Position numbers and translations under genes: made by a program. From Minisyncoccota bacterium (GTDB taxonomy: Bacteria; Patescibacteriota; Minisyncoccia; JAHIHE01; JAGLIN01): a stretch of DNA of 64,000 bases. Positions 12,641-63,556 of this stretch are shown one piece after another. Each line of letters opens with the position of its first letter. The stretch's first letter is position 1. The DNA is taken from NCBI GenBank assembly GCA_023142995.1, contig JAGLIM010000006.1, positions 32,577 through 96,576 on the forward strand, in the 5' to 3' direction. Under the pieces are notes generated by a model that saw nothing but the letters and a program-made list of their open reading frames with translations, made no database searches and had not been told where the DNA came from.

Positions 12641-12683
12641 AATTATATTGTTATATTGTCAATTTTGAATCGTTGGCTCTATG

Positions 12684-14759: not shown

Positions 14760-14825
14760 TTCCAATAATCAAAATTCCAATAATCAAAAAAGAGACGAAG
14801 CAGTGTTTTGTGCGTGTTGAGTGTA

Positions 14826-14848: not shown

Positions 14849-14975
14849 CACGGCGTTGAAAAAAAGGTAGGGTAAAGGACTCGACAACTATTGAAAATTA
14901 TGAGATAATACACAGTCTAATTCAAAGATATGCTCTTTGACAATTACAAATTAGTAAGAATATTTTAAGGGATAG

Positions 14976-23754: not shown

Positions 23755-23780
23755 GAATATTCTTTTTGATATGATCTTTA

Positions 23781-23925
23781 TGTAGAAACTGTTTTGTCTG
23801 TCCGCCTTGGGAGGGTAAATAGTTTCTGATGTTTTCTAAGTAAATAATATTTATTGATATTTCAAAACAAAAAAATAAAAGCAACTTGCGTTATTTTGTA
23901 GAACAAAATATGCTTGTTGCTTTTT
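23781..23925 (+). repeat. 'GCGGGAAC-hairpin-TTTCTGATGTTTTC' element family, copy C1. It contains the GTCCGCCTTGGGAGGG core.
   Basis: It is paralogous to 58089-58245, 58981-59080 and 63423-63556. Confidence 0.45.
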
Positions 23926-25044: not shown

Positions 25045-26742
25045 TTAATAATTTAAATATTTTATCATATATCCATCAACAAGATCATATTCTAGTTTTC
25101 GATAATAGTTCCTTACTCCTACACCGCTGATGACGGTGATCTTTTTTAAACCGAATTCTGCTTTAGTGATCTTTTCTGCTTCAGCGATTAGTTTTTTTCC
25201 AAGTCCAGTATGTTGGGGCGATTTTTTGCTTTTTGATCTTATAGGAACGAGTTGGCCGTATGTGTGAATTTCGCGGATAATAGAAGCATTTTCAAGAGCA
25301 GGGATAAAAGAATGAACTCCAATCTCGTTAATTCTTAGTCTTAATAAAGAATAGATGTGTTGTCTTTTTTTATCTTCAAAACTTAAAAATATTTCTTTGC
25401 CACCTGAAGCGTTGTAATCTTGGCGGAATAATTTTAAATTATTAACCACCCCTAGCCCCTCCTTTAAAAGGAGGGGATTTTGATTTCTTACTTCCCGGCA
25501 TCTGATACATTTGCAATTCCATCCCTCTTCTTCTGATCTTTTCTTGAGAACTTGTCTTAAATTGGAAACTTTATTTCCAGCGACAATGCTTGTTGATGGA
25601 ATGTCTCTAATAAGGCGGGTAATGCGAACATAATAAGGAACTATTTTTTTGATCTCACAAAGTAATTGAATGAGTTTTTTGTCTGGATATGGTTTGTATT
25701 TGCCAGTTTTAAGCCATTTATAAATAGGAGCATTTTTGACAACCACGCAAGGATAAATTTTCAGCATATCTGGCTGAAAATCGGGATTTGAAAATAATTC
25801 TTTAAACATTGTTAAATCTTTTTTGTAGTTTGATCCTGGTAGATCTGGCATCATATGATAGTTTATTTTAAAGCCAGTTTCTTTTAGTAGCCTTGTCGCT
25901 TTGATCGTTTCGTTAACAGAATGTCCACGTTTGTTAAATTTCAAAACATCATCATAAACACTTTGCACTCCAAGTTCAACTCGCGTTGCTCCAAGTTTTC
26001 TCATTTGTAATATTTCTTTCTCATCAATATAATCAGGACGTGTTTCAAGCGTAAGTCCTACAATTCGATGTGAAGCTTTTTCGTTTATTTTTTGGAGTTG
26101 TTTGAGCGATAAGGCTCTAAGTGGCTTTTGAAGCCACTTAGAGCCTGCGTTGCATGCAGAAAAACATTCTTTTATAAACCAAGTTTGATATTGTTTTGGA
26201 AGATAAGAGAAAGTTCCACCCATTACGATCAATTCGATTTTATCTGTTTTATGTCCAGTAGCTTTAAGTGATCTTAATCTTGCTTGAACTTGTTTATAGG
26301 GATGAAAATCTGTTAAAACTGCCCGCATTACTGCTGGTTCATTTGAGAGATAACTTTTTGGTATACCTTTCTCATTAGGACAAAATTTACAAGTTCCAGG
26401 GCAGGGGTATGGCTTTGTCAGAACTGCAATAATCGCTACACCTGATGAGCTGCGAATATCTTTTGTCATTAAAACTTTTTCAATTTCTTTTTGAAGATTT
26501 CTTTTTGATATTTTTCTATAAGATCTGAGAAGCTCTATATTAGTTGGACAAGGCATTTTATATTTCTTTGAGGCTTTTCTTTTGAGCTTTGAAAGATATT
26601 CTGAAGAAAGTTGTCTTTTTTTGACAGAAACCTTTTCAATAAGTTCGTTGATAATGTATTGGTTAATATTCATAAAATGATTTAGTTTAGATAAGTAAGT
26701 ATAGTGTGTTAATGTAATTTTATCAAGAAAGGCTTCTGGCAA
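25045..26742 (-). CDS. elp3: Elp3-family radical-SAM/GNAT tRNA-modification enzyme, a bacterial Elp3 homologue.
   Basis: Radical-SAM Cys cluster KPYPCPGTCKFCPNEKGIP. C-terminal GNAT HTGLGKKLIAEAEKI. It contains an in-frame copy of the CCCTAGCCCCTCC...GGAGGGG palindromic repeat (KEGLGVVNN). Confidence 0.85.
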   Translation of the reverse strand: MPEAFLDKITLTHYTYLSKLNHFMNINQYIINELIEKVSVKKRQLSSEYLSKLKRKASKKYKMPCPTNIELLRSYRKISKRNLQKEIEKVLMTKDIRSSSGVAIIAVLTKPYPCPGTCKFCPNEKGIPKSYLSNEPAVMRAVLTDFHPYKQVQARLRSLKATGHKTDKIELIVMGGTFSYLPKQYQTWFIKECFSACNAGSKWLQKPLRALSLKQLQKINEKASHRIVGLTLETRPDYIDEKEILQMRKLGATRVELGVQSVYDDVLKFNKRGHSVNETIKATRLLKETGFKINYHMMPDLPGSNYKKDLTMFKELFSNPDFQPDMLKIYPCVVVKNAPIYKWLKTGKYKPYPDKKLIQLLCEIKKIVPYYVRITRLIRDIPSTSIVAGNKVSNLRQVLKKRSEEEGWNCKCIRCREVRNQNPLLLKEGLGVVNNLKLFRQDYNASGGKEIFLSFEDKKRQHIYSLLRLRINEIGVHSFIPALENASIIREIHTYGQLVPIRSKSKKSPQHTGLGKKLIAEAEKITKAEFGLKKITVISGVGVRNYYRKLEYDLVDGYMIKYLNY

Positions 26743-30704: not shown

Positions 30705-33700
30705 TTGATTAGATATATAAAAAAACTAATCTTAACTAATATGAAAAACACAAAAACAAAACTATTCCTCCATCTTTTTATCTCAAGTTTCTTTTTGTTT
30801 GGGCTGGTGGGGGTTAGTGAAGCAGCCGATCACAACTGGTATTTCTCAATGTCAGGCGGTGGAAATGTTTGTTCTCAAGTCTCTCCATGCAAGTGGCTTT
30901 CATCAAACCAAGTCGGATATGTAGCAGGGCAAACAACAGCTCAAAACAAAATTGACAGCGTTGGTTCGGACAAGACTGTTAATTTGTATTTTAAGAGGGG
31001 GGATGTTTGGAGTTTTAATACGGATATGGTATCAACAAAAGTTTATTATGGATTACTTGTTAATAGTGATGATCCGACAGTTAATATAGATACTTATGGA
31101 TTAGGTGCAAAGCCGATATTTGACGGAACTGTAACAGATTTTAGTAGTGTACCAAATCACGATCATACCATTACCACAGGTCCGTATAAATGGAACAATA
31201 TTTTTCAATTTAATAGAAATGATTGTTCGGTTAAAAACATACATATAAATGGGATTTACGGGCAGGGTATAGTTCTTGGAGATGCGAGTAATGCTACGGA
31301 TAATTTTACTCTTGAAAGTTCTGATATAACTAATTTCGGTAATTGTGCTATTAGGTCAAGCTCAAAGTATGCAACACGAAACACTACTGTTACTAAAAAT
31401 TTGATACACACAGGACAACAGTTACAACTTTATGGTAAATGGCCCATCATGAATTGGGGTGCAGGGATTATGATAACTCCGCTAAACCATTTTCGTACCC
31501 CTTATGGGAATGTTATTAATTATAATGTCGTATATGACATAGCAGGCGAAGGGATTCATGCTTTTGGTACTACTATTGAGCATAACATTGTTGGTGATAC
31601 GGGTTCAGTTGGTATATTTGTTGCGCCTGATGCTGGGGACGCAACAGATACCATTGTTAGATATAACTTGGTTATAATGAGTGACCTTTTATCGTCTGAC
31701 TATGATAATGATGGTGCTATTGCACACGAAGGAATTGGAATCGCAGATGAAGGTTTTGGTGGGAGTAATGTAAATGCAATAGTAAAAGTTTATGGAAATA
31801 TAGTTATAAACCGGCTTAAAGGTATATTCTTTGCCGCTTATAATGGGAGCGTGGCACCTTGGAAAGAGATACATATTTATAATAATACCATTATTGATTC
31901 TTCGGGGGCTAATATGGTGATTTCAGAACCAGCCCACGACATGGTTGCTGTTGGAAAAGGGTTTATCTATAACAATACTTCCATTTTATACGATATAACG
32001 GGTAGTATTCATGTGGCAGATTGGAGCGATCCGCCAGCTTTAAGTACATATTGGACAATAGAAAACAATCACTTCTGGACAACAGGAGGATCTCCGACAG
32101 TAGATACAGATTGGCAAACCAACATGATCACCACCGACCCCCAACTTACAGGCGAACCTCTCATAGACTGGGACGGTCAATCAGGACCAACCTATTACAA
32201 AGACATTAAATTCAGCGATGTTATTCCCTTGGCAGGATCATCTCTAATCGGTTCAGGTAAAACGCTTGATGCTAGTTATAATAAAACATTTCTAACTCAA
32301 GGAACTGATTTTAGTGCATTACCTAATTTAACTAATTTCACGCTTTCATCCCAGACAGATGGTTCTTGGGATATAGGAGCGGTGGAGATGGCAGTTCCCG
32401 CCGACCACAACTGGTATTTCTCAATGTCAGGCGGTGGAAATGTTTGTTCCCAAGCGGCTCCCTGCAAATGGCTTTCATCAAACCAAGTCGGATATGTAGC
32501 AGGACAAACAACTGCTCAAGACAAAATTGACAGTATTGCTTCGGATAAGATAGTTAATTTGTATTTTAAGAGAGGGGATGTTTGGACGGCAGATACATCA
32601 GCGGTAAATAAAATAAATTGTCACGGACTTCTTGTTTCTGCGACTAACCCAATTATAAATATCAACGCATACGGTTCTGGCAATAAACCTGCTTTTGATG
32701 GTTTGGTTTCAGATTTTTCTACTGCTCCTGCTCATAACAGCACGACTGGGCCGTTGTTTTATAACAGATTTTTTGAGTTCAAGCGCAATAGTTGCAGTAT
32801 ATCAAATATAGAAATTAAAAGAGTTTATGGTAATGCTGTATTTTTAAACCCATCTAATTATTTTACGCTTGATTCTTGCAACATACATAACTTTGGCGCT
32901 GGCGGTATTTCAATATCGTCTGCAGTAGGTGGAAATAATATCACAGTTATAAACAACATTTTTCATACTGGACAAGAGCTATATAGATATGGTTTGCGAT
33001 CTGGATGGGAAGCCGCAATTCAATTAACAACAAAAGGTCATTTATGTGAAGATAATGTTATTAGATATAATGTTGTTTATGATATTTATGGAGAAGGAAT
33101 ACAGTGTGTTAATAGTTTATGCGAATATAATATTGTCGGAGATACAGGATCAATTGCTCTTAATACTTCTAATCATGGATGGGATGCTAAAAAAACTACA
33201 GTTAGATATAATATTGTAACGATGTCTGATTGGGGTTCAAGTATTTATGATACATTAAGTGGATCAAGTCCCGTAGGAGTAAGAGTTTATGACGAACATC
33301 CTGGTGGTAACAATTCAGGAGCAGATATACAAATCTATGGTAATATCATAATAAATACAAGGAACGGGATACAGCTTGGTTCACCAGAAGATCCGGGAAA
33401 TCCTTATGGTTCTGTAAAAATATATAATAATACTTTAGTGGACTGCATATCAAATTGGACTTTTTCACAACCGGAGGAATTTAGCAATGTGCATATTTAC
33501 AACAATTCATCTATTCATTATGACAGGACAGGCGCTCATTCTGTAAATTGGGATATAGCTGCCGGATATAGTGGCTGGGTATTTGACTATAACCATTTTT
33601 ATCCTGTCGATGGAAGTAATACAGTACTTCCCATTTTTGCTTCAAATCAAATCACCACCGACCCCAAACTCATTGGCGAACCAACAATAGACTGGGACGG

Positions 33701-34448
33701 TCAATCAGGAGCAACCTACTACAAAGATATTAAATTCAGCGATGTTATTCCATTAGCAACTTCATCTCTGATCGGTTCAGGTAAAACGCTTGACGCTAGT
33801 TATAATAAAACATTTCTAACTCAAGGAACTAACTTTGATACTCTACCAAACACTCCTAACTTTATGCTTTCATCTCAAACAGATGGTTCTTGGGATATAG
33901 GAGCGGTAGAAGTTGGAGGAGCTATTATTACCTGCGCTTCCCTCGGAGGCACCTGTTGCGCGCCATTTCAAATCTGCCAAGGAGGATCCGCAGCAACTTC
34001 ATCATGTAGTAATGTCTGTTGTGTTGGAGGAACTTGTCAAAATGTAGCTCCACCTCCACCTCCACCACCTCCAACTTGTCAAAGCCAAGGACATAAATGT
34101 TGTTTCTCTTGCCACACAGGACCTCATCCAATATATGATGGTGATTGTGTTGGTGAACGAATATGTTGTGATACTTGTCCTCCTCCTCCAAAAGCTAGTA
34201 TGAAAAACTTTATCTCAGTATTAAATTTCTCTAATCTCGTTGAAAACTTCTTAGTTTGGACACTATCTATTATCGGCTCTTTATCTCTTTTGATAATTGT
34301 TGTCGGAGGAGTGATGTATATTGGTTCTACTGGAGATGAACAAAGAATTGTCACAGCTAAAAGAGCTGTTACTTATGCTATAATAGGATTAGGATTAATT
34401 CTTAGCGCTTATGCTGTGATTATGGTGTTGGGAAAAGTGTTAAATTAA
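30705..34448 (+). CDS. Giant secreted protein. It contains two tandem roughly 525-aa beta-helix repeats, a Cys/Pro-rich module and a C-terminal double-TM tail.
   Basis: Signal peptide. ADHNWYFSMSGGGNVCSQ...IGAVE is duplicated at 30825 and 32400, with about 90% nucleotide identity at the repeat starts. The Cys-rich region reads CCAPFQICQGG...PPPPPPPPTCQ...CCDTCPPPP. The C-terminal TM-loop-TM tail reads VMYIGSTGDEQRIVTAKRAVTYAIIGLGL. Confidence 0.7.
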   Translation: MIRYIKKLILTNMKNTKTKLFLHLFISSFFLFGLVGVSEAADHNWYFSMSGGGNVCSQVSPCKWLSSNQVGYVAGQTTAQNKIDSVGSDKTVNLYFKRGDVWSFNTDMVSTKVYYGLLVNSDDPTVNIDTYGLGAKPIFDGTVTDFSSVPNHDHTITTGPYKWNNIFQFNRNDCSVKNIHINGIYGQGIVLGDASNATDNFTLESSDITNFGNCAIRSSSKYATRNTTVTKNLIHTGQQLQLYGKWPIMNWGAGIMITPLNHFRTPYGNVINYNVVYDIAGEGIHAFGTTIEHNIVGDTGSVGIFVAPDAGDATDTIVRYNLVIMSDLLSSDYDNDGAIAHEGIGIADEGFGGSNVNAIVKVYGNIVINRLKGIFFAAYNGSVAPWKEIHIYNNTIIDSSGANMVISEPAHDMVAVGKGFIYNNTSILYDITGSIHVADWSDPPALSTYWTIENNHFWTTGGSPTVDTDWQTNMITTDPQLTGEPLIDWDGQSGPTYYKDIKFSDVIPLAGSSLIGSGKTLDASYNKTFLTQGTDFSALPNLTNFTLSSQTDGSWDIGAVEMAVPADHNWYFSMSGGGNVCSQAAPCKWLSSNQVGYVAGQTTAQDKIDSIASDKIVNLYFKRGDVWTADTSAVNKINCHGLLVSATNPIININAYGSGNKPAFDGLVSDFSTAPAHNSTTGPLFYNRFFEFKRNSCSISNIEIKRVYGNAVFLNPSNYFTLDSCNIHNFGAGGISISSAVGGNNITVINNIFHTGQELYRYGLRSGWEAAIQLTTKGHLCEDNVIRYNVVYDIYGEGIQCVNSLCEYNIVGDTGSIALNTSNHGWDAKKTTVRYNIVTMSDWGSSIYDTLSGSSPVGVRVYDEHPGGNNSGADIQIYGNIIINTRNGIQLGSPEDPGNPYGSVKIYNNTLVDCISNWTFSQPEEFSNVHIYNNSSIHYDRTGAHSVNWDIAAGYSGWVFDYNHFYPVDGSNTVLPIFASNQITTDPKLIGEPTIDWDGQSGATYYKDIKFSDVIPLATSSLIGSGKTLDASYNKTFLTQGTNFDTLPNTPNFMLSSQTDGSWDIGAVEVGGAIITCASLGGTCCAPFQICQGGSAATSSCSNVCCVGGTCQNVAPPPPPPPPTCQSQGHKCCFSCHTGPHPIYDGDCVGERICCDTCPPPPKASMKNFISVLNFSNLVENFLVWTLSIIGSLSLLIIVVGGVMYIGSTGDEQRIVTAKRAVTYAIIGLGLILSAYAVIMVLGKVLN

Positions 34449-38366: not shown

Positions 38367-38503
38367 TGGTTGGTAAAAAATTTTCAATTTTCAATTTACA
38401 ATTTCCAATCAATTTTCAATTAAATAATTTTCAAATAAATATATGGAAATAATTGGAAATTAGAAACATTGTTTATGTACAACTTTATATATCAAATTAA
38501 CCT

Positions 38504-38887: not shown

Positions 38888-38972
38888 TAAAGTTAAAATA
38901 GATAAGGGTTGTAAACTTAGAATTTGAAATATAAAATAAATATTCTAAATTCTAAATTCTAAATTCTGTTGT

Positions 38973-40709: not shown

Positions 40710-40744
40710 AAAATGTAAAAATAAATATTCATAATTCAAAATTC

Positions 40745-42325
40745 ATGCTAGATATATTAATAAAAAATGGAACCGTAATTGATGGAACTGGTTCAAAAAG
40801 TTCTATTGTTGATGTTGGGATAGAGAAAGAAAAGATAACTATTTTTGAAAAAACAAAAGAAGTTGAAGCAGGTGAGATCATAGATGCTACTGGAAAGATC
40901 GTTTGTCCAGGATTTATTGATATCCTTGATCATTCAGATAATTTTTGGACTATTTTTACAATACCTAGATTAGATAGTAAAGTCACAGATGGTGTAACAA
41001 CAATAATTGGTGGTAATTGTGGAACATCACTTGCTCCAATATTAGGTGAAGGTTCTATTGAATCTATGAGAAAATGGGTAGATATAGGGAACATAAATAT
41101 AAATTGGGACAGAATGAGTAGCTTATTCTCTGAATTGCATAAAAAAGATATAGGTCTTAATTTTGGAACTTTAGTTGGACATGAGACATTAAGGCGAGGA
41201 TTAATGGGAGATCAAATAAGAAAAATTACTGGAGATGAGATCAAAATGATCATGAGAGTGCTTTTAGAAAGCTTAGAAGATGGAGCTTTCGGATTATCTA
41301 CTGGACTTGTTTTTTCACATGCTCGTATGGCGACTATTGAAGAAATAAGGAGTATTGTACGAATATTAAAAGCTAGTAATTCTTTTTATGCGAGTCATAT
41401 TAGAGGTGAATCAGAAGAATTGTTACCTAGTGTCAATGAAACAATTCAAATTGGAAGACGGACAGGAGTACCAATTCAAATATCGCACTTAAAGGCCGTT
41501 GGAGAAAAATATTGGTCTGATATGCAAAAAGCTATAAAAATGATAGATATAGCTAATGAAGAAGGAATTGATATTAACTTTGATGTGTATCCATATGACA
41601 CTACCGGATCAGTATTATATATTCTGCTTCCTGATTGGGTTTCTCAAGGAGGTAGAAAGAAAATGATGCAAAGATTAAAAAATATGGAATTAAGAAATAA
41701 GATTATAAAAGAGATGAGAGGAATGAACTATGATTATAAAAATATTATTGTTTCTATATGTCCAAGACTTAAAGAAGCCGTTGGTAGAAAAATCACTGAT
41801 CTTGCTGTAAGTCAAGAAATTAGTCCAGAAGAGGCTATAATTGAATTATTAATTAGCGCAAATGGTCATGTAGTTGTGTTTAATGGGGGAATATTAAGTG
41901 AAGATAATATTAAGTTATCTTTGCAAAGTCCATATTCAATCATATCATCGGCAGATGCTGCATATAATACTGAATATGCAAGAACAGGAGAGCTTGTTCA
42001 TCCAAGATGTTTCGGAACTTTTTCTAGGGTTTTAGGAAGATATGTAAGAGAACAGAAGGTTTTAAGTTTAGAAAGCGCTATTAAGAAGATGACCTCTGAT
42101 CCAGCTAAAAAAATTGGACTAAAAAATAGAGGTATCTTAAAAAAAGATTTTTATGCAGATGTTGTTGTATTTGATGAAAATAAGATTATAGACAAAGCTA
42201 ATTTTGAAAATCCTTATCAATATTCTCAAGGTATTGAACATGTAATTATTAATGGAAAGTTAGTTATAAATAAAGGTAAGCATACGGGTGAGTTGGCGGG
42301 GAAGGTTTTAAAAAAGACAGGTTAG
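40745..42325 (+). CDS. N-acyl-D-amino-acid deacylase (D-aminoacylase) family amidohydrolase.
   Basis: The N-terminus IKNGTVIDGTGS...DATGKIVCPGFIDILDHSD is typical of the D-aminoacylase family. Confidence 0.7.
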   Translation: MLDILIKNGTVIDGTGSKSSIVDVGIEKEKITIFEKTKEVEAGEIIDATGKIVCPGFIDILDHSDNFWTIFTIPRLDSKVTDGVTTIIGGNCGTSLAPILGEGSIESMRKWVDIGNININWDRMSSLFSELHKKDIGLNFGTLVGHETLRRGLMGDQIRKITGDEIKMIMRVLLESLEDGAFGLSTGLVFSHARMATIEEIRSIVRILKASNSFYASHIRGESEELLPSVNETIQIGRRTGVPIQISHLKAVGEKYWSDMQKAIKMIDIANEEGIDINFDVYPYDTTGSVLYILLPDWVSQGGRKKMMQRLKNMELRNKIIKEMRGMNYDYKNIIVSICPRLKEAVGRKITDLAVSQEISPEEAIIELLISANGHVVVFNGGILSEDNIKLSLQSPYSIISSADAAYNTEYARTGELVHPRCFGTFSRVLGRYVREQKVLSLESAIKKMTSDPAKKIGLKNRGILKKDFYADVVVFDENKIIDKANFENPYQYSQGIEHVIINGKLVINKGKHTGELAGKVLKKTG

Positions 42326-42777: not shown

Positions 42778-43791
42778 ATGGATGATAGTGATAAGATAAA
42801 TAATATTATAGAAAATTTAAGAGAACAAGATCAGCAAAATTATGGTGTTGCTGTTTTTGATATTGATTCAAAAATTGTAAAAAACAGTATTGTAGTTTTT
42901 GGAAAAGTTTTAACGTATAGTCAGAAAGATCAAGTCTCAGAATTGGCAAAAAAACAAAAAATAAAAATTACTTCCGACAGAATAAAAGTTTTAAGTGATT
43001 CTAGCAAAAGATATGAAATCAATTGGGCTGTTGTAAAAGACGCAGTGACAGATCTGAAATTGCGATTTGTTTCTAATAGAATAGTAAATGAAAAAATATT
43101 AAAAAGGATCAGATGTTCACAGGCGTTTAAGGGTGAGATCTTGAGAGTTTTATATAAAAATGAAGATCAACTATTAGTCCAGCAGAATGATCTGACATTA
43201 GGATGGGTGGACAGAAAAGATGTGATTTTAAAGAAAATTAGCTCTTCCCATGATAAAGCCTGCCCTGAGCGAGAGTCGAATGGGGGGAGGTTGGGAGGGG
43301 TTAGAAAACGCAGAAAATTAGGTTTATATAAAAAATGGAAGAGCGGCAATTTTGTGATTAAAGGTAAAGTGATAATTGCAAAAAAGTTCCACAGCCCTAG
43401 CGGGACTATGGAACTAACATCTAAAATCATCAGAGAAGCAGAAAAATATATAGGTACAAAATATCTTCTTGGCGGGAAAACTAAAAATGGAATTGATTGT
43501 TCTGGATTAGTTCAAGTCGTTTATAAGAATTCTTTAAATATAATTTTACCAAAACATTCGTGGGATCAAAAAGAGATTGGAGAAAAGTTGAAATTAGAGA
43601 ATATAAAGACTGGTGATCTAGTATTTTTGATAAAAAAAAGCAACAAGCATAAGCATGTTGGAATTGTGAAAAAAAATAAAGATATAAATTTAATTCATGC
43701 TTCATTTGATAAAAAGAAAGTTGTTGAGCAAAACTTAGATAAAGTTTTTGAAAAATACGATTTTGTAGAAGTGAGGAGGATAGTGAAATAG
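42778..43791 (+). CDS. NlpC/P60-family cell-wall peptidase.
   Basis: The catalytic Cys is in GIDCSGLV, His in HVGIV and His in IHAS, in the C-terminal domain. There is a G-rich internal segment ESNGGRLGGV. Confidence 0.8.
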   Translation: MDDSDKINNIIENLREQDQQNYGVAVFDIDSKIVKNSIVVFGKVLTYSQKDQVSELAKKQKIKITSDRIKVLSDSSKRYEINWAVVKDAVTDLKLRFVSNRIVNEKILKRIRCSQAFKGEILRVLYKNEDQLLVQQNDLTLGWVDRKDVILKKISSSHDKACPERESNGGRLGGVRKRRKLGLYKKWKSGNFVIKGKVIIAKKFHSPSGTMELTSKIIREAEKYIGTKYLLGGKTKNGIDCSGLVQVVYKNSLNIILPKHSWDQKEIGEKLKLENIKTGDLVFLIKKSNKHKHVGIVKKNKDINLIHASFDKKKVVEQNLDKVFEKYDFVEVRRIVK

Positions 43792-44228: not shown

Positions 44229-45764
44229 ATGTCAATATCAAATCAACTCAATCAATACAAGAATAAAAACATTCATATTGTCGGGATCGGTGGGGCGGAG
44301 GGAAGTGCAATCGCGGAGTTTTTAGTGTCTCAGGGAGTCTCTTCGGTCACTGGACATGATTTTTCTTCTAAAGCGGATTTCAAAAAAACTTTTTATAATA
44401 CTCATTTAAGTCTAAAACCAAAAGAAAGAGAAGGAGCATTAGATCATCTTTTGGATTTGCCTATTAGAATGAATTTTAAAGGTCATTATTTGGAAGGAAT
44501 TGACCAAGCGGATATGGTTTTTGTTTCGCAAGTTTGGTTTAAATACCCGCAAAATATGCCGATTTTAGAGAATTTGAAAGATAATGGAGTTCCATTCAAG
44601 ACTATTACTAATTTATATTTTGAACTAGCGCCATGTCCCATTATTTCTGTAACAGGAACAAACGGCAAGACAACGACAGCGAGATTAATCAATAGTATTT
44701 TTAATGCTTGGGGGGTTAAAGTCTTTTTCGCTGGGAACGATCGTCAAAATGTTCAGGTTCTAAATAGGCTTAATGAAATGAAAAAAGAAGATATTTTAAT
44801 TCTTGAAACAAGTAGTACTCAACTATTATTAAACTCTGAAATAAGTCCGTATATTGGAGTTATCACAAATATTACACCTAATCATATTGATGATCATGGC
44901 AGTTTTGAAAATTATATTGAAGCAAAAAAGAATTTGATTAGGTATCAAAAGAAAGGGGATTTTGCGGTTTTAAACGAAAAGTTGAAAGTTTATAAAGTAC
45001 ATAAAGCTATAAAGTCAAGGATATTTTGGTTTAGTGGAAAAAAAGAGTTGGAAGAAGGGTGTTTTGTAAAAAATGGGAAGATTATGATAAGAGAAAATGA
45101 TAAATGCAGGTTTGCAAAAAATCTCCACATCAACACACCCCTAGCCCCTCTCAAGAGGGGAATCGAGATAATGAAGCCAGCAATTGTTTGTAATATAGAT
45201 GATATAAAAATTCCAGGCAAGCATAATCTTGAAAATGTTTTATCGGCAGTTTCTGTTACTTATCTTTATGGTGTAGATTCGAAAATAATAAAAAAAGGCA
45301 TATCAGAATATACCGGTATAAAGCATAGATTAAAACTTCTTTACAATATAGATAGAATCAAATATTATGATGATACACAAGCTACCACTCCTGAGGCGAC
45401 AATTGCGGGTATTGGTTCTTTTGATGGTGATATAATATTGCTTGCAGGTGGAGATAATAAGGGAATGAATTATAAAGAATTGGCGGAGAAAATTAATGAT
45501 AAAGTGAAATTTCTGATGTTATTTTCTGGTAATGCTTCAGATGAAATTGAAGAGTTGATTGATAAAGATAAAGTAGATTTTATAAGAGTGAAAGATTTTG
45601 CTAATGCAATTGAAGAATTAAAAAAATATTATAAAAAAACTGATCCTATAAAAAACGGTACAGTCTTAATTTCTCCCGCGGCAGCTTATTTTTATTCAAA
45701 ATTTGTAGAAAATTCGGGAAAGAGTTTAAGAGAATGGATCAAATCAGTATCTAGTATCAAGTAG
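44229..45764 (+). CDS. murD: Mur ligase, probably MurD (UDP-MurNAc-L-Ala:D-Glu ligase). It contains an in-frame partial repeat element.
   Basis: ISVTGTNGKTTT P-loop, HNLENVLSAV and GGDNKGMNY. It sits after mraY. The segment NLHINTPLAPLKRGIEIM is encoded by a repeat-element fragment at about 45106-45175. Confidence 0.7.
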   Translation: MSISNQLNQYKNKNIHIVGIGGAEGSAIAEFLVSQGVSSVTGHDFSSKADFKKTFYNTHLSLKPKEREGALDHLLDLPIRMNFKGHYLEGIDQADMVFVSQVWFKYPQNMPILENLKDNGVPFKTITNLYFELAPCPIISVTGTNGKTTTARLINSIFNAWGVKVFFAGNDRQNVQVLNRLNEMKKEDILILETSSTQLLLNSEISPYIGVITNITPNHIDDHGSFENYIEAKKNLIRYQKKGDFAVLNEKLKVYKVHKAIKSRIFWFSGKKELEEGCFVKNGKIMIRENDKCRFAKNLHINTPLAPLKRGIEIMKPAIVCNIDDIKIPGKHNLENVLSAVSVTYLYGVDSKIIKKGISEYTGIKHRLKLLYNIDRIKYYDDTQATTPEATIAGIGSFDGDIILLAGGDNKGMNYKELAEKINDKVKFLMLFSGNASDEIEELIDKDKVDFIRVKDFANAIEELKKYYKKTDPIKNGTVLISPAAAYFYSKFVENSGKSLREWIKSVSSIK

Positions 45765-47113: not shown

Positions 47114-47273
47114 AATAGAAAATAATAGATTAGAATATTAAATCATAAATCCAAAATTATAAATTCCAAATAAATCCAAAATTCAAATGTTCAAAATTTT
47201 AAACTGTTTTTGATTTTGGTTATTGTAATTTATTTGTTATTTGATATTTTGAATTTGTAATTTAATTAATAAG

Positions 47274-51017: not shown

Positions 51018-52457
51018 TTGTTGATTTTTATGAAAATTGATTTTAAAAAAATAAATAAAATATATTTTATAGGAATTGGTGGTATCGGACTTAGCGCTAT
51101 CGCCAAATTTATGAAATTAGATCAAAAGCAAGTTAGTGGTTCAGATTTGAATCATTCTTTAATCATTGATAATTTGAAAAAAGATAAAATAAAAGTTTAT
51201 ATCGGACATTCGAAAGATAACATAACTAATGATATTGAACTGGTTATTCACACAACAGCAATCTCAAAAGATAATCCAGAATTAAAAAGGGCAAAAGAGC
51301 TAAATATAAAAACTATTACATACCCAGAGTCTTTAGGGCTCATTTTTAATAATAAGTTTGGTATAGCTGTGTGTGGTACACATGGTAAGTCTTCAACATC
51401 AGCATTGGCTGGCTTTTTGTTAGACGATGCAAAATTTGATCCTTCTATTGTTGTGGGAAGTATCTTGCCGAGATATAAAAGCAATTTGCGTATTGGCAAG
51501 AGCAAATATTTTGTTGTTGAAGCGTGCGAGTATGAAAGGTCATTTCTAAATTTATATCCCAAAATCATTATTTTAAATAATATTGAACTTGATCACACAG
51601 ATTATTATAAAGACATAGAGGATATGAGAAGCGCGTTTGAGGAATTTGTGGGGCATTTGCCCAAGGACGGGATTTTGATTTGTAATGGAGATGATGAAGA
51701 AATTATAAATCTAAAATTACAAATTCTAAATAAATTCAAAATTCAAAATTCAAAATTCAAAATTCTATCCTTTGGCTTAGATAAGAATAATGACGTGCGA
51801 GGTTGTGATGTTAGATTTGAAAGTGGAATGGCTAAATTTAAGGTACTTTATAATGAGAAAGATTTGGGGGAGTTTGTTTTGAAGGTGCCTGGTCTTTTTA
51901 ATATTTATAATGCTTTAGGCGTGATTACTTTAGGACTGATATTGGAAATTCCGATTGAAACAATAAAAAAATCCTTAATGAATTATTCGGGGATTTGGCG
52001 GAGGTTTGAAATAAAAGGGAAATATAAAAATGCTTTAGTTATTTCTGATTATGCGCATCATCCAACTGCAGTAAAAGCAACAATAGAAGCGACAAGGAAG
52101 TTTTATCCAAATAAAAGGATACTTGCTGTTTTTCAGCCACATCAGCACAATCGAACGAAAAAGTTATATAAAGATTTTTTAAACAGTTTTAACGATGCGG
52201 ATATTGTGATTTTGTCTGAAATATTTGACGTGAAAGGGAGGGAAGAAAGCGATGACCAAAATGTTAGTTCATTAAATCTAGTGGACGATATAAGAAAAAA
52301 TTGGGAAATTGAGAAATTAGATATTAATTCTATTTTTTATTCTAGGAATTTAGAAGAAACGAGAAAGATGATTGATAAGTATATTGAACCTAATGATATT
52401 CTATTGATCATGGGGGCGGGGGATATTTATAAAGTAGCAGATGACTTGATTAAATAA
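51018..52457 (+). CDS. murC: MurC (UDP-MurNAc:L-Ala ligase).
   Basis: IYFIGIGGIGLSAIAKF...VSGSD and IAVCGTHGKSST. It contains an in-frame AAAATTC x4 heptamer array (KIQNSKFKI) at about 51712-51767. Confidence 0.9.
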   Translation: MLIFMKIDFKKINKIYFIGIGGIGLSAIAKFMKLDQKQVSGSDLNHSLIIDNLKKDKIKVYIGHSKDNITNDIELVIHTTAISKDNPELKRAKELNIKTITYPESLGLIFNNKFGIAVCGTHGKSSTSALAGFLLDDAKFDPSIVVGSILPRYKSNLRIGKSKYFVVEACEYERSFLNLYPKIIILNNIELDHTDYYKDIEDMRSAFEEFVGHLPKDGILICNGDDEEIINLKLQILNKFKIQNSKFKILSFGLDKNNDVRGCDVRFESGMAKFKVLYNEKDLGEFVLKVPGLFNIYNALGVITLGLILEIPIETIKKSLMNYSGIWRRFEIKGKYKNALVISDYAHHPTAVKATIEATRKFYPNKRILAVFQPHQHNRTKKLYKDFLNSFNDADIVILSEIFDVKGREESDDQNVSSLNLVDDIRKNWEIEKLDINSIFYSRNLEETRKMIDKYIEPNDILLIMGAGDIYKVADDLIK

Positions 52458-54073: not shown

Positions 54074-55129
54074 ATGCCAATCAAAATTCAGGAAAATATT
54101 TCACTTTCAAAATACACTTCATTTAAGATCGGTGGTCCAGCGAGGTATTTTTGTGTGGTAAAAGATATTGATGAAATAAAAGAAGCATTAGAATTTACGG
54201 GGAAGAAAAAATTGAAAGTTTTTGTTTTAGGAGGCGGTAGTAATTTATTAATAGCAGATAAAGGGTTCGATGGACTAGTGATACGAATTCAAAATTCAAA
54301 ATTCAAAATTCAAAATTCTAATATTATTTGCGGAAGTGGACTATCTTTAGCTAAATTAGTATTTGAATTAGCAGAAGCTGACCTAACGGATATTGAATGG
54401 GCAGCGGGTATTCCAGGAACTGTTGGTGGGGCGATTGCGAATAATGCGGGGGCTTTTGGAAAATGTATGGAGGATGTTGTAAAAGAAGTTGAAGTTTTAG
54501 AGATTAATCGCTGGCTCCATAGTCCCGATAGGGCTGTGGAGCCTATTGCACAAAAAGGTTCCACATCAACACATCTCTTACCCTCTTCCTCCCAAGGCGG
54601 ACAAGCAAGAGGGGAATTATCACAATGGAACCAGCGTATGTTTACTAACAAACAATGCCAATTTTCTTATCGCAATAGCATTTTCAAAAAAGAAAAAAAG
54701 TATATTATCTTGGACGCTGTTTTGAAATTAGAAAAAGGGGATCAAGAAAAAAACAAAAAAACAATTGCAGAAATTCTAGAATCAAGAAGAGAAAAACAGC
54801 CGTTAGAGCATCCCAGTGCGGGGAGCGTGTTTAAAAATCCAGTTGTTGATGGTGCTCATTTAGAAAAATTAAAAAAAGAATTTCCAGAGTTAAATGAAAT
54901 CGTTAAAAATAATACTATTTCTGCTGGTTGGATGATCGAACAAATTGAAGGATTAAAGGGGAAAAAGATCGGTGGCGCAATGGTTTCAGAAAAGCATTGT
55001 AATTTTATTGTTAATGTAGAAAATGCTAAAGCAGAAGATGTGATCATACTTATCAGTCTGATCAAACAAAAAATCAGAAGCCATTTCGGGATTCAATTAA
55101 AAGAAGAAATTGAATATATTGGATTTTAG
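54074..55129 (+). CDS. murB: MurB (UDP-N-acetylenolpyruvoylglucosamine reductase). It carries two in-frame repeat insertions.
   Basis: KYTSFKIGGPARYF, VLGGGSNLL, GIPGTVGGAIANNAG and SAGSVFKNP. There is a heptamer array at 54285-54318 and a palindromic element at 54511-54634. Confidence 0.85.
   Translation: MPIKIQENISLSKYTSFKIGGPARYFCVVKDIDEIKEALEFTGKKKLKVFVLGGGSNLLIADKGFDGLVIRIQNSKFKIQNSNIICGSGLSLAKLVFELAEADLTDIEWAAGIPGTVGGAIANNAGAFGKCMEDVVKEVEVLEINRWLHSPDRAVEPIAQKGSTSTHLLPSSSQGGQARGELSQWNQRMFTNKQCQFSYRNSIFKKEKKYIILDAVLKLEKGDQEKNKKTIAEILESRREKQPLEHPSAGSVFKNPVVDGAHLEKLKKEFPELNEIVKNNTISAGWMIEQIEGLKGKKIGGAMVSEKHCNFIVNVENAKAEDVIILISLIKQKIRSHFGIQLKEEIEYIGF
54511..54634 (+). repeat. Palindromic repeat element inserted in-frame in murB, with terminal inverted repeats CTGGCTCCAT / ATGGAACCAG.
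   Basis: It encodes WLHSPDRAVEPIAQKGSTSTHLLPSSSQGGQARGELSQWNQR. It contains the GCTCCATAGTCCCGATAGGGCTGTGGAGC hairpin and a reversed GTCCGCCTTGGGAG core. Confidence 0.65.
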
Positions 55130-55332
55130 ATCATTTTAACATATAAACATATTAACATTTAAACAAGAACTTCTGTTTAGTTTTTTGAAATATGATAATT
55201 AAATTATGTTTAAATGTTAATCGGGTGTTCTATCTAGTATTTTTAGAAACACCTTCTTTTTTTATCTTAAAAATGGTAAGATAAAATTAATAACACACCC
55301 CAACCCCTCTCAAGAGGGGAATAATTTATTTT

Positions 55333-56634
55333 ATGCTTGGAATTTTTGAAAAATATTATAATTTATATTCTTGGTTTCCAAGAATGGAAAAAACCACCTT
55401 TGATGTTTCATTGGTGCATTTTTTATTGATGTTTGGATATAAACTCTTTTCGTTATATTATCCACTTTTTTTAATTTCAATTGGATTTTCAATTCTAAAT
55501 ATAGGAAGTATATATCTGCTTACATATTCTGTGATCGCTATTTCTTCTGTGATCATAAATTTCTATATTCATAGATTTAATCCTTCAAAAATCGCGGCGC
55601 TTGGGATCTTCGGATATGGAATTTTCGCGCTATTGATGATTATAAGTCATAATTTAATGGTTTTTTATATTGCTCAGATAATTCTTGGTTTTTCTGCGGC
55701 GGCGTGGCTGGTATCTTTGAAATTGATTTTAATGAAAGCTAAAACTCAAAGCAAAAATCGCAGTTTCGGGTGGTTTTATTCAATGCCTCATTATGCGGCA
55801 GCGGTTGCTCCAGCTATTGGCGGATTGATTATTTGGAAGTTTGGTTTCATAGGAGTTTTTACTTTAAGTGTTTTAATTCAGTTTGCTAATGCGTTTTATG
55901 CTTATAAAAAGTTGAATGGAAAATCCCATTGTTGGCTCCATAGTCCCGATAGGGCTGTGGAGCCTATTGCGCAAAAAGGCTCCACATTAACACACCCCTT
56001 ACCTCTCTCAAGAGGGGACTCGCCACAATGGAGCCAACGCATCAGAAAAAACTACAGCGAGATTCTAAAGATCATAAGATCAGATAAAGCTTTTATTTCA
56101 ATTTTGATCTCTCTGTTTTTTGTTTTAATTCTTGGAGGAATTTATAGGGCATTTTTTATTTTGTTCTTAAAAGATATGTCTTTTTCTCAAGAGGAGATAA
56201 TCAAATTTATCATTTTAGCTTCAGTTGCTTATTTTCCTCTTTCGGTATTAGTTATAAAAATAATTGAGAAATTAAAAAGTAGAAAAATTATTAGTGGAGG
56301 AATATTAGTTGAAGGAACGGCAACAATTGTTTTTGGAATTTTTGCAAATATAATGAACCTATTCGGATTATTTATGATTATGATAATTGATTCTCTTGGA
56401 GCATTGGCGCTTGGAAGCGGGAAAAGCGCTTTGCTTTCCAAGAAATTGAAAAATTATAAAGAGGAAGCATCAACAATAGATACTGTTTTAACGACTCTTG
56501 GTCCAGCGATTGGTGCTTTTGTTGGAGGCATTGCGATCTCATATATTGGGTTTGGGAATACATTTTTGTTTGCGGGAATAATTGTGTTTGTAATGGGGAT
56601 TGCTTCTTATTCTTTTAAGCTGAACGGTCATTGA
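55333..56634 (+). CDS. MFS-type transporter. It carries an in-frame palindromic-element insertion in the central loop.
   Basis: 12 TM helices arranged 6+6. The central loop contains WLHSPDRAVEPIAQKGSTLTHPLPLSRGDSPQWSQR. Confidence 0.7.
   Translation: MLGIFEKYYNLYSWFPRMEKTTFDVSLVHFLLMFGYKLFSLYYPLFLISIGFSILNIGSIYLLTYSVIAISSVIINFYIHRFNPSKIAALGIFGYGIFALLMIISHNLMVFYIAQIILGFSAAAWLVSLKLILMKAKTQSKNRSFGWFYSMPHYAAAVAPAIGGLIIWKFGFIGVFTLSVLIQFANAFYAYKKLNGKSHCWLHSPDRAVEPIAQKGSTLTHPLPLSRGDSPQWSQRIRKNYSEILKIIRSDKAFISILISLFFVLILGGIYRAFFILFLKDMSFSQEEIIKFIILASVAYFPLSVLVIKIIEKLKSRKIISGGILVEGTATIVFGIFANIMNLFGLFMIMIIDSLGALALGSGKSALLSKKLKNYKEEASTIDTVLTTLGPAIGAFVGGIAISYIGFGNTFLFAGIIVFVMGIASYSFKLNGH
55932..56037 (+). 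repeat. Palindromic repeat element, 106 bp, with perfect 10-bp terminal inverted repeats TTGGCTCCAT / ATGGAGCCAA. It is inserted in-frame in the MFS gene.
   Basis: The same 5' hairpin module occurs in the murB copy and at 58821-58848. The 3' half ACACACCCCTTACCTCTCTCAAGAGGGGA matches 45120-45170, 55290-55330 and 12724-12746 (reversed). Confidence 0.7.
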
Positions 56635-58053: not shown

Positions 58054-58088
58054 AAATGATGTTTTTATAATAGTTATCTTGTAGGAAT

Positions 58089-58245
58089 TTTTGCGGGAAC
58101 GGATTTGCCTGTCCGCCTTGGGAGGGTAATCCGTTTCTGATGTTTTGAAAATAAGTAAAATTATATTGCAAATTTTATTTTTGTAAAAACGAAAAATGAA
58201 ATTTCAAAACAAAAGGAACTGTTTGTAAAATAGTTCCCACAAAAT
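58089..58245 (+). repeat. 'GCGGGAAC-hairpin' element, copy C2, with GTCCGCCTTGGGAGGG in the hairpin loop.
   Basis: TTGCGGGAACGGATTTGCCTGTCCGCCTTGGGAGGGTAATCCGTTTCTGATGTTTTG...GGAACTGTTTGTAAAATAGTTCC. Confidence 0.45.
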
Positions 58246-58641: not shown

Positions 58642-58820
58642 TTAACATATACATTTTACTTTATAACTTTATTCACCCAGTTAAATTGCTTTGCACTTCA
58701 CTTTAGTGAAGATTTAACAGGATAAAATTTTAACTTTAGTTGAGTTGGGTAAAAGTGGAATTTAAGAAGATTAGGAGGAATAGAGATAAGAGATAGAAAG
58801 CATTTTTGGAACTCTCGTTA

Positions 58821-58848
58821 GCTCCATAGTCCCGTAGGGCTGTGGAGT
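58821..58848. repeat. Solo copy of the GCTCCATAGTCCCGTAGGGCTGTGGAG hairpin module.
   Basis: It matches the 5' module of the intragenic elements in murB and the MFS gene. Confidence 0.5.
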
Positions 58849-58980
58849 CTGAATGCAAGCTGGTGATATTTCTTAAAATTTATTTTTTATACAAATCCTT
58901 GCATTAAAGGTTCGCTGTGTGCTGGTTAAGGATTCTGTCCTGAACCAATAACAAAAATATGCGCTTGCCAAGTTAAATTT

Positions 58981-59080
58981 TTGCGGGAACTGTTTTGTAA
59001 ACAGTTTCTAATGTTTTCTAAGCAAATAAATATTGTTGCATTTTCAAAACATTAGAAACTGGTTAAAAAAACCAGTTTCT
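58981..59080 (+). repeat. 'GCGGGAAC-hairpin' element, copy C3.
   Basis: TTGCGGGAACTGTTTTGTAAACAGTTTCTAATGTTTTCTAAGC...AAACTGGTTAAAAAAACCAGTTTC. Confidence 0.45.
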
Positions 59081-63284: not shown

Positions 63285-63422
63285 AAGATTACGAAAAATA
63301 TCACTTAATTGAGACAAACTGGATTCCCGCCTCCGCGGGAATGACAGGTTTTGTCTTGTGAAGTAAATAATAGATAAAACCAAAAATACAAAAGATCCTG
63401 AGACAAGGATGACAAAATTTTA

Positions 63423-63556
63423 AGCGGGAACGGATTTGCAATCCGTTTCTAATGTTTTGAAAGCAGGTTAAATTGTATTATGAATTGTGTTTATATAAAA
63501 AACGCAAAACGAAACTTAAAAACAAAAAAACTGGTTTCAAACCAGTTCTCGCTAGT
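63423..63556 (+). repeat. 'GCGGGAAC-hairpin' element, copy C4.
   Basis: AGCGGGAACGGATTTGCAATCCGTTTCTAATGTTTTGAAAGC...AAACTGGTTTCAAACCAGTTCTCGC. Confidence 0.45.

Follow-up and report, generated by a model that had tools for sequence, protein, structure and literature searches.

Introduction

The small AT-rich genome of Rickettsia carries palindromic repeats of ~100-150 bp, the RPEs, which lie in frame in unrelated housekeeping genes (Ogata et al. 2000, summarised in PMC10969869 and PMC3733652). Shorter palindromes, the REPs and their REPIN dimers, are mobilised by RAYT transposases (Bertels and Rainey, PMC3116915, PMC3337134). The REPs that carry a CGTC tag include RPE-4, RPE-6 and the Neisseria dRS3 (Di Nocera et al. 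2013, PMC3733652). These CGTC families have a stem of 8-9 bp beginning with AT, a loop of 4-5 nt and a CCA tail (PMC3733652). Bacterial MITEs, finally, comprise Correia, ERIC, QMITE and others (review PMC10969869).

Here we describe a palindromic repeat from a stretch of 64,000 nucleotides of a Minisyncoccota genome, referred to below as the window. Patescibacteria are regarded as extremely streamlined, with genomes of ~1 Mb. The repeat is a new family of a known sort, namely intragenic REP/RPE-like selfish palindromes. The habit of inserting palindromes in frame is known from Rickettsia and has apparently not yet been described in Patescibacteria/CPR.

Results

Copies of the element in the window

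Several families of palindromes are found in the window, some of them within essential cell-wall genes. No tRNA was found in it.

Composite copies of the element studied here lie inside the murB reading frame and inside that of an MFS transporter (Table 1). Both had been noticed in the first-pass annotation of the sequence as leaving the frame open and adding nearly the same peptide, and both host ORFs are indeed intact. Translated in one element frame, the copies give WLHSPDRAVEPIAQKGST...QW(N/S)QR. They are 93% identical across their first 71 nt, and a 31-nt hairpin, GGCTCCATAGTCCCGATAGGGCTGTGGAGCC, has the same letters in both, with 0 matches expected (100 shuffles). The terminal inverted repeats, initially given as 10 bp, reach at least 12 nt (CGYTGGCTCCAT...ATGGARCCARCG) and the borders of the two copies are therefore shifted outward to those of Table 1. 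The predicted RNA folds of the two full copies have z-scores of -4.7 and -5.0.

Table 1. Location of the repeat copies and of their parts in the window.
Feature	Positions	Strand	Description
Composite element in murB	54509-54636	+	128 nt, net +126; host ORF 54074-55129; encodes residues ~146-188, RWLHSPDRAVEPIAQKGSTSTHLLPSSSQGGQARGELSQWNQR
murB copy, left hairpin unit	54513-54543	+	10-bp outer stem with T·G pair, bulged T, 3-bp inner stem, GATA loop
murB copy, right hairpin	54557-54632	+	outer stem 54557-54565 pairs with 54622-54632; module B fills the loop
murB copy, module B	54567-54615	+	CACC..CCCTCT..AGAGGGG palindrome inside the right-hairpin loop
murB copy, 18-nt insert TCCTCCCAAGGCGGACAA	54587-54604	+	nested in the module B loop
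Composite element in MFS transporter gene	55930-56039	+	110 nt, net +108; ORF 55333-56634; residues 200-236, central hydrophilic loop
MFS copy, left hairpin unit	55934-55964	+	identical to the murB left unit
MFS copy, right hairpin	55978-56035	+	loop holds module B (55988-56018)
Solo 44-nt unit in NlpC/P60 gene	43376-43419	-	in frame; ORF 42778-43791; encodes KKFHSPSGTMELT in the linker before the catalytic domain
Solo left unit, intergenic	58816-58858	+	single unit
Right half (spacer, right hairpin, module B) in murD	45114-45182	+	in frame; ORF 44229-45764
Right half with module B and nested 16-mer, intergenic	12670-12746	-	downstream of ORF 11054-12640
Module B alone, intergenic	55292-55322	+	between murB and the MFS gene
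Module-B-type palindrome (CCACCCCTAGCCCCTCC..GGAGGGG) in Elp3	25446-25478	+	ORF 25045-26742 on the minus strand; encodes NPLLLKEGLGVV

The partial copy previously noted in murD lies in frame as described and corresponds to the right half of the element with its module B. The partial in-frame copy reported in Elp3 contains a palindrome of the module B type, but is not a net insertion: the protein is only ~2-3 residues longer than solved Elp3 at this site, so the palindrome replaced a native loop. All three intergenic copies on the earlier list are present and can be assigned to parts of the element, that at 12.7 kb being a right half and the others module B alone and a solo left unit. That list had missed the complete solo unit in the NlpC/P60 ORF.

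Architecture of the repeat

In the basic unit of ~44 nt, a CGYT tag precedes a 31-nt imperfect hairpin, which is followed by a TnnnTGCAA tail. The tag varies between CGTT, CGCT, CGAG and CGAC, and certain copies end in ...GTCG. Among the imperfections of the hairpin are a bulged T and a T·G pair that does not vary. Two units inverted around a short spacer form the full element, and in canonical copies it is the whole 44-nt unit that is inverted. Such dimers were found 44 times in related loci, and both composite copies of the window are dimers as well. Elements range in length from 82 to 230 nt and code only for short peptides. In the window copies a second small palindrome, module B, is nested in the loop of the right hairpin. 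Rather than being one simple unit, the element combines several parts, some nested within others, and its layout is nearer to that of a REP dimer (REPIN) than to that of a classical IS-derived MITE.

The pairing of the hairpin is strongly maintained: 99.2% of cells are paired, with compensatory two-sided changes in 6 of the 13 pairs, a result matched by none of 500 shuffles, whereas in slid controls pairing drops to 37-50%. All 122 of 122 distinct rows have the T·G pair.

The unit can be read through in five of its six frames, and a gene therefore survives an insertion into a tolerant loop if the gain in nucleotides is divisible by 3. The lengths of intergenic dimers modulo 3 are distributed 13:11:12, with no preference for multiples of 3. 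The in-frame state of the genic copies is therefore a survival filter.

Insertion sites in the host proteins

MurB orthologues of minimal size (307-308 aa) have no insert, and the alignment with MurB of the PDB breaks exactly at its position. In the AlphaFold model of MurB (mean pLDDT 88.6), residues 148-182, between two strands, are the only ones below 50. The insert is thus predicted to be a disordered turn in an otherwise confident fold. Extra residues are present at one β-hairpin in 101/121 MurB sequences (that of the window and its 120 closest homologues). Among orthologues, the murB inserts form a nested series of 147, 198, 225 and 243 nt with steps of +27 and +18 and shared junctions. 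Module B is missing from the orthologous murB copy of locus L087 and present in that of L034, and the 18-nt insert constitutes the +18 nt of the window and of L088 over L034. Hairpin loops of resident copies have received smaller palindromes, first module B and then an 18/19-mer.

The insert of the MFS protein had been placed in the central loop between the two halves of the transporter, and it does lie within a hydrophilic stretch (191-252) between two six-helix halves. In the orthologous MFS copy of L046 the right hairpin is plain. L089 contains at the same site a decayed copy, with mostly GC-to-AT changes, and no intact unit was found across 13 kb of its syntenic DNA.

MurC carries the element in L034 and has an empty site in L087. 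The MurF-like ligase of L032 has an insert that is missing from that of L055, and vice versa. These ligases were rejected as murD orthologues since they are MurF-like, and the murD insert was therefore compared with a solved MurD structure (3lk7); the alignment breaks at query residues 286-320, corresponding to chain residues 260-266. Alignment of MurB, MurC and the MurF-like ligases with their orthologues, and with MurB and MurD of the PDB, bore out the expectation that the extra segments are lineage-specific indels at the element borders.

Across orthologues of MurB, the MFS protein, MurC and the MurF-like ligase, a given site can be empty, filled, decayed or occupied by another repeat in the same loop, and the same loops host at least six repeat families across lineages. 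A small number of permissive loops are thus landing pads that are reusable across lineages.

The source of the window is a MAG, and repeats can misjoin; in another MAG of the set, MAG138, contigs frequently end in units. A chimeric join at repeats, or another artefact of assembly or binning, has nevertheless a negligible probability here. The murB copy is unchanged in the independent assembly L088 (98.4% nucleotide identity), and the insert-bearing MFS protein is found on 5 contigs of different samples and in an NCBI record. Moreover, no reading frame is interrupted, and the protein sequence on either side of the inserts is conserved.

Distribution among genomes

The unit is present in 86 stretches from ~25 MAGs, nearly all of Patescibacteria, with the same dimer layout. 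A covariance model detected 4 units within the window. In related loci totalling 648 kb it gave 216 matches, of which ~85% fall outside long ORFs; this agrees with the dispersal anticipated in the first-pass annotation. Copies within ORFs in other loci are carried by GT2, MurB, MurC, MFS and MurF-like ligase genes. Relative to genes, the positions of the units are mixed: inside ORFs, upstream, downstream or in tandem arrays. The tandem arrays of MAG138 have periods of 46, 50 and 69 nt and identical spacers, and therefore represent tandem duplications and not a CRISPR array. The hairpin was searched for in IMG/VR viral contigs, PLSDB plasmids and GenBank phages, with no match.

This distribution also bears on the idea that murB and the MFS gene share an ancestral module of protein, or coding sequence copied from one gene to the other by gene conversion, in place of a repeat element. 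MurB and MFS orthologues in related MAGs do have the same peptide at the same position. However, the same DNA recurs in intergenic regions and within unrelated genes, in either orientation and in several frames. The segment is missing from minimal orthologues and from solved structures, it is predicted to be disordered, and the element is GC-rich in a window of 31.5% GC. A protein origin of the segment is therefore highly improbable.

Age and conservation of the copies

The murB and MFS insertions are common to orthologues at 67-81% amino-acid identity and predate the species. Orthologous element DNA is 89-93% identical, whereas the 4-fold sites of the flanking genes are only 42-66% identical, near saturation. 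Such conservation of the element over near-saturated neutral sites calls for more than tolerated junk, that is, for gene conversion, re-insertion or selection. Close relatives showed no insertion polymorphism, and L088 shares the murB copy, a pattern that gives no sign of recent movement.

The element is flanked by (C/T)G...C(G/A). The net insert size equals that of the element plus 2 in three cases and not in others. Because CG is self-complementary, a target-site duplication is indistinguishable from the inverted termini, and none stands out clearly. The offsets of the element copies, analysed for such a duplication and for a length rule of in-frame copies, were inconsistent.

If purifying selection were responsible, the hairpin might be a cis-element useful to the host, acting in RNA as a stem-loop for transcript stability or termination, or in DNA as the site of a conserved protein, with the copies inside ORFs as by-products. 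The identity of orthologous copies amid near-saturated neutral sites would be explained in this way, as would a 21-nt core that is unchanged across several Patescibacteria classes and the invariant T·G (G·U) pair in a covarying stem. Units downstream of genes are also mainly in the sense orientation (27 vs 6), a crude count since many "solo" units are dimer halves and the directions of transcription and replication are inseparable in it. Yet the copy of L089 decayed freely at the same MFS site, and other orthologues have different repeats or an empty site there. The positions of the units relative to genes are heterogeneous, and in any one transcript only one hairpin of the dimer contains G·U pairs. 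Furthermore, no Rfam 15 family matched the window at the gathering threshold, and around the elements only chance-level matches appeared (E 0.26-0.51, listing to E 1). We consider a host cis-element unlikely and retain the reading of a selfish repeat.

Search for a mobilising enzyme and for insert peptides

The sole transposase gene of the window is ISNCY-like (13387-14688) and belongs to an IS spanning 13286-14759. It was rejected as the parent element, as its inverted repeats are unrelated to the element ends. Pfam analysis of the neighbours of units and of unit-flanked ORFs in 89 loci revealed no transposase beside or between units; the genes there are housekeeping genes. No RAYT/HUH/Y1 gene was detected by a crude regular expression in the window, in the ~6 kb past its end or in the genome fragments at other loci. 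DUF559 and AAA_14-DUF4143 genes recur near units, but were discarded as partners because they are not consistently adjacent.

The joined three-frame peptides of the element gave no match in a collection of 5.8 billion proteins, a search limited by its word index, as the exact MFS protein is present in the collection. Using HMMER with the 36-aa insert peptide against 1.84 billion cluster representatives, we obtained 7 weak matches to long proteins, at 37-39% identity and with several stretches each. These were taken for unrelated repetitive proteins; clustering at 50% identity hides insert-bearing members.

Discussion

These results are very probably explained by a family of selfish, non-autonomous palindromes, of the REP/REPIN or MITE type, with a wide distribution in Patescibacteria. 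The RPE-like reading proposed in the first-pass annotation is supported by the in-frame insertions in unrelated ORFs at fold-compatible sites. An enzyme encoded elsewhere in the genome would recognise the folded, mismatched hairpin and make copies of it. Recognition could take place on single-stranded DNA, as with RAYT/IS200-type HUH transposases, which we propose tentatively. A DDE transposase binding the inverted ends seems rather doubtful, and we hold the same view of other mechanisms or of elements that no longer move. While a family is active, continued copying or gene conversion would hold its copies near the consensus; once it is inactive, they would decay by GC-to-AT mutation. Copies in frame in tolerant loops persist for long, and those of murB and the MFS gene were inherited across species.

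That the hairpin is conserved, and that ever-smaller palindromes are nested in hairpin loops, points to a copying or maintenance mechanism. In a bolder and improbable version, the 31-nt hairpin would be the recognition site of a structure-specific machinery common to many Patescibacteria classes, and possibly to a MAG labelled Nitrospinia, that maintains the copies and puts palindromes down to 18-19 nt into hairpin loops. Such a maintenance would account for the 89-93% identity amid saturated neutral sites. It would amount to an insertion or maintenance system that targets hairpin loops without a recognisable transposase and continually remodels surface loops of essential proteins.

For CPR genomes, segments derived from these repeats inflate and diversify protein families in annotation and structure prediction. 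The repeats are likely places of contig breaks in MAGs, and can be used as markers to trace lineages.

Like bacterial MITEs, the elements are short (<~300 bp), lack a transposase gene, have terminal inverted repeats and occur in many dispersed copies, with presence or absence among relatives and some in-frame fusions. They differ in that each terminus is itself a hairpin and that no candidate parent IS with the same ends turned up in the sequence searched. IS1397/ISKpn1-type elements insert into REP loops. Here too, loops of resident hairpins serve as landing sites, but the sequences that enter them are non-coding and measure only 18-30 nt.

Like REPs, the units are imperfect palindromes 20-40 nt in length whose stem mismatches are conserved, and like REPINs, the elements are inverted pairs of units separated by a short spacer. 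Clusters or tandem arrays (as in MAG138), mostly extragenic copies and long persistence are also shared. However, the GTAG tag is replaced by CGTT, CGCT, CGAG or CGAC, and no RAYT/Y1 gene was detected in the sequence examined. Furthermore, one hairpin spans several lineages at the class level here, whereas REPIN-RAYT pairs are usually lineage-specific. With the CGTC REPs the element has in common a tetranucleotide tag beginning with CG ahead of the stem, a predominance of dimers, some genic copies and no known dedicated transposase. It falls outside CGTC families 1-4, with a 13-bp bulged stem that also begins differently and a TnnnTGCAA tail.

With RPEs, finally, the element shares its palindromic build, a length of about 100-150 bp, a small AT-rich host genome, in-frame insertion, a conserved peptide at fold-compatible sites, additional intergenic copies and the lack of a transposase of its own. 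Its in-frame habit extends to murB, MFS, murD and NlpC/P60 genes in the window and to GT2, MurC and MurF-like ligase genes elsewhere. The likeness considered here is one of layout and habit. The hosts belong to another phylum, and the element is built from two copies of a 31-nt hairpin, with further palindromes nested in it. Unlike the sites of RPEs, the loops that receive it are reused by at least six repeat families.

Anatomy of the element and its copies in the window

The comparisons show that the element belongs to a family of structured, non-coding repeats found dispersed, and that its intragenic copies are tolerated in disordered loops. Within a window of 31.5% GC, two GC-rich segments, 54509-54636 in murB and 55930-56039 in the MFS transporter gene, share an identical 31-nt hairpin, GGCTCCATAGTCCCGATAGGGCTGTGGAGCC, a match with a chance expectation of 0 (100 shuffles). 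The first 71 nt of the two segments are 93% identical, and both are translated in one common element frame to give WLHSPDRAVEPIAQKGST...QW(N/S)QR. RNA folding is far better than that of shuffled sequences for both the murB copy (z = -4.7) and the MFS copy (z = -5.0). The first-pass annotation, which had described these segments as in-frame insertions resembling Rickettsia palindromic elements, gave an overall correct description of the element, but with slightly shifted borders and with one copy overlooked.

The canonical element, defined from 109 aligned core occurrences in other genomes, consists of two inverted units of about 44 nt with a short variable spacer between them. Each unit comprises, in order, a CGYT tag, the 31-nt imperfect hairpin and a TnnnTGCAA tail. 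The hairpin is built from two stems, an outer one of 10 bp containing a T·G pair and an inner one of 3 bp, with a bulged T and a GNNA loop. A small palindrome, module B (CACCCC...CCYCTC-loop-GAGGGGA), fills the right-hand hairpin loop of the window's copies; in the murB copy its own loop holds an 18-nt insert.

Coordinates of the repeats and associated genes (window positions unless a related locus, L-number, is named)
Feature	Coordinates	Strand	Remark
Covariance-model unit	54509-54552	+	
Covariance-model unit	55930-55973	+	
Covariance-model unit	43376-43419	-	
Covariance-model unit	58816-58858	+	
MurB ORF	54074-55129		host of murB copy; intact
MFS transporter ORF	55333-56634		host of MFS copy; intact; exact protein P0121 has Pfam MFS_1
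Module B alone	55292-55322		
Module B alone	25446-25478		in Elp3
Module B and right half of element	45114-45182		in murD
Module B and right half of element	12670-12746	-	
16-19-nt motif	23800-23815, 58111-58126, 54588-54602, ~12698-12714		
Terminator-like hairpins with the motif	23777-23851, 58088-58162		
Terminator-like hairpins without exactly those 19 nt	58975-59035, 63416-63475		
67-nt palindromic family	4895-4961, 4981-5047, 9900-9966, 10989-11055, ~20388-20453		
Heptanucleotide tandem arrays	38379-38421, 38942-38967, 40727-40746, 47232-47263		intergenic
Internal duplication pairs	30825/32400, 32127/33651		1247-aa ORF
AAA_14-DUF4143 genes	L012 2104-3300, L028 2846-4162, L073 243-1448, L075 514-1644, L092 11147-12352		

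Distribution and covariation

When one genome per GTDB species was scanned with the exact pattern, the hairpin turned up on 86 stretches from about 25 MAGs, almost all of them labelled Patescibacteria and spread over several classes (Paceibacterota/Parcubacteria, Moraniibacteriota, Falkowbacteria, Magasanikbacteria and Saccharibacteria). It also occurs in two MAGs labelled Gammaproteobacteria (L040, L054) and on 7 contigs of one MAG labelled Nitrospinia (46% GC). In the latter (L004, L010, L053, L060, L071, L074), 84-nt dimers with the main-family hairpin adjoin histidine-kinase genes and GTGAACC-type heptamer repeats. All comparisons involve MAGs and metagenome contigs, and these occurrences are compatible with either cross-phylum spread or mis-binning. 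The hairpin pattern was not found in IMG/VR viral contigs, PLSDB plasmids or GenBank phages, and Rfam held no family matching the element.

Searched with a covariance model derived from 51 units, the window and fetched loci (648 kb) gave 216 matches. Among the 150 best matches (122 distinct rows), 6 of 13 pairs were changed on both sides and 99.2% of cells were paired, a figure flattered by the fitting of the alignment to the model. The observed covariation was reached by none of 500 shuffles, and slid controls dropped to 37-50% paired. Outer-stem swaps from C-G to T-A and from T-A to G-C are visible in the raw sequences, and the T·G pair is invariant in the 122 distinct rows. Since the loci were picked by exact core match, the 21 core bases look more conserved than they are.

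Insertions within genes

Among the 120 closest homologues of MurB, the shortest (307-308 aa) run VEILE directly into TGKLNSKEC, where the window protein has 42 extra residues. Its alignments to solved MurB structures break exactly at the insert, and in the AlphaFold model (mean pLDDT 88.6) the sole segment below 50, residues 148-182, sits between strands 136-144 and 185-191. The MFS insert (residues 201-236), missing from many orthologues, lies within the hydrophilic stretch 191-252 that separates two hydrophobic halves. In MurD, about 34 residues at the element stand opposite 5 chain residues of structure 3lk7, and in Elp3 the palindrome substitutes for a loop of almost equal length.

In-frame units were found in other genomes in a GT2 glycosyltransferase, MurC, MurB (opposite orientation) and a MurF-like ligase. 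The MurC proteins of loci L087 and L034 differ by exactly the element, as do the MurF-like ligases of L032 and L055, at two sites. About 15% of exact hairpins (18/112) lie inside long ORFs, 10 of the 18 in the window's frame, counts that include orthologous copies and thus non-independent events. The 44-nt unit, read from its sequence, is open in five of six frames. Intergenic dimer lengths show no bias toward multiples of three (13:11:12), so being in frame appears to reflect a filtering of survivors rather than a property of the element.

History of the insertions

The murB insertion junctions are identical in the window, L088, L087 and L034/MAG138 (74-81% amino-acid identity). The segment forms a nested series: a solo reverse unit in L014 (147 nt), the dimer in L087 (198 nt), the dimer with module B in L034 (225 nt, +27) and the dimer with module B and the 18-mer in the window and L088 (243 nt, +18). 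L088, the closest relative, is 98.4% identical to the window up to the end of murB and only 83% beyond (window 55128-55223 versus L088 2510-3620); there it carries a 1.1-kb TPR gene, present in L087 and missing from the window. This sharp mosaic boundary adjoins a module-B copy.

Orthologues with amino-acid identities as low as about 60% share the MFS insertion. In L046 the insertion lacks module B; what persists in L089 and its relatives is a decayed relic whose changes are mostly from GC to AT. No intact unit was found in the 13-kb syntenic L089 locus, where the element has clearly drifted. Orthologous element copies are 89-93% identical (57 nt) as against 42-66% at four-fold degenerate sites of flanking genes, so the intact element is not drifting freely. 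Gene conversion or re-copying in an active family could account for this degree of conservation, as could selection on the hairpin.

Insertion hotspots and other repeats

The MurB and MurC loops are insertion hotspots across Patescibacteria. The MurB loop after VEVLE (window ~54500-54640) exceeds 14 residues in 101 of 121 sequences, reaching 98, and its residues derive from at least six repeat families. At the MurC loop (window ~52290-52330), L087 has no insert, the window has a 9-nt AT repeat, L034 the hairpin dimer and L014 a B-type palindrome. The linker of the NlpC/P60 gene contains another GC-rich repeat, read in frame as DKACPERESNGGRLGGV (43235-43323); this repeat also occurs at 20287-20301. 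In the MFS loop of L087 it replaces the hairpin element at precisely the window's site (TPQPPLSGGLNSSPDKACPEREPNGGRLGGV; 7672-7732, 93% identical over 61 nt), and in 14 homologues the MurB loop is taken up by PPDKGGWGV peptides akin to it. An (AATTCAA)x5 array, translated KFKIQNSKFKI, is 100% identical in murC (51733-51767) and murB (54286-54320). At this β-hairpin, MurB orthologues read RITNYELRIKNNE, KIQDTRYKIQDTN, KVKSQKSKVKSNK or RIANCELRIANKN, translations of differing 7-nt units in all three frames. Several genes have similar heptamer arrays immediately upstream, and in other MAGs such arrays adjoin hairpin units.

The 18-nt insert of murB module B corresponds to a 16-19-nt motif (CTGTCCGCCTTGGGAGGGT and its reverse complement) that also sits in hairpin loops of an unrelated, terminator-like family. 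It was found only in hairpin loops, those of three different families, and its length is too small for a conventional transposon. A second palindromic family of 67 nt, TAATATTTTTCGACCTTGTGGAGAA...TTCTCCATAAAGTCGAACAATATTA, is AT-richer, folds at -26.8 kcal/mol and is intergenic in all copies. Its stem core TTCTCCATAA/TTGTGGAGAA resembles CTCCATAG/CTGTGGAG of the main family, G·T pair included, and in MAG138, a MAG with tandem unit arrays, it directly adjoins main-family units. A 1247-aa ORF (30705-34448) contains a large internal duplication (187-260-nt segments about 1.5 kb apart, 86-91% identical), which is a two-copy domain architecture and not a mobile repeat.

Possible means of copying

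The sole transposase of the window, assigned by reading of its translation, is an ISNCY-like DDE protein of 433 aa (ORF 13387-14688). Its IS (1474 bp, 13286-14759) carries imperfect inverted repeats TGTCAGCCCCAA.../...TTGGGGTTGACA, lies between direct repeats TTCCAATAATCAAAA and seems to have inserted into a homologue of the start of ORF 11054. It was rejected as the element's parent, its inverted repeats being unrelated to the element. A small GC-rich palindrome, GTAGAGACGTAGCA-C-TGCTACGTCTCCAC (core CGTAGCACTGCTACG), has two copies, one just past this IS (14823-14851) and the other just upstream of the NlpC/P60 gene (42737-42751).

ORFs adjoining or between units are housekeeping genes, a crude motif screen found no HUH genes, and about 6 kb of the source contig past the window end (matching metagenome contig) yielded nothing further. 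Genes for AAA_14-DUF4143 ATPases turn up repeatedly close to hairpin units; the one in L012 has units on both sides, 66 and 119 nt away. The association is inconsistent, the nearest unit being more than 1 kb off in L073 and L075. DUF559 endonuclease-like genes also recur (L012, L037, L072).

By analogy with REP systems, we tentatively prefer a mechanism in which the element would be copied as a folded single strand recognised by a RAYT or IS200-type enzyme. The element recalls REPs and REPINs in its conserved mismatch and bulge, its inverted-dimer layout, the tandem arrays of single units in MAG138 and the way hairpin loops have received insertions; it lacks the defining GTAG tag, and a RAYT was not found in the searched loci. 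Downstream of genes, units lie in sense rather than antisense orientation by 27 to 6 (L001-L088 and window), a crude count in which orthologous copies are included and many 'solo' units are dimer halves. This skew is compatible with an effect at the transcript level or with a bias between replication strands.

Comparison with known systems

A full-text search of a limited literature returned no paper linking Patescibacteria/CPR with REP, REPIN, RAYT or MITE elements, and a 2024 review of prokaryotic MITEs leaves these phyla unmentioned. In behaviour, the element is closest to Rickettsia palindromic elements and to the intragenic REPs catalogued by Di Nocera et al. (PMC3733652). In structure, it is closest to REP dimers (REPINs) and to CGTC-tagged REPs, which likewise have no dedicated transposase. 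Since the element falls outside the sequence definitions of both the GTAG and CGTC families and no parent IS was found in the window or the searched loci, we class it as a new family within a kind already known.
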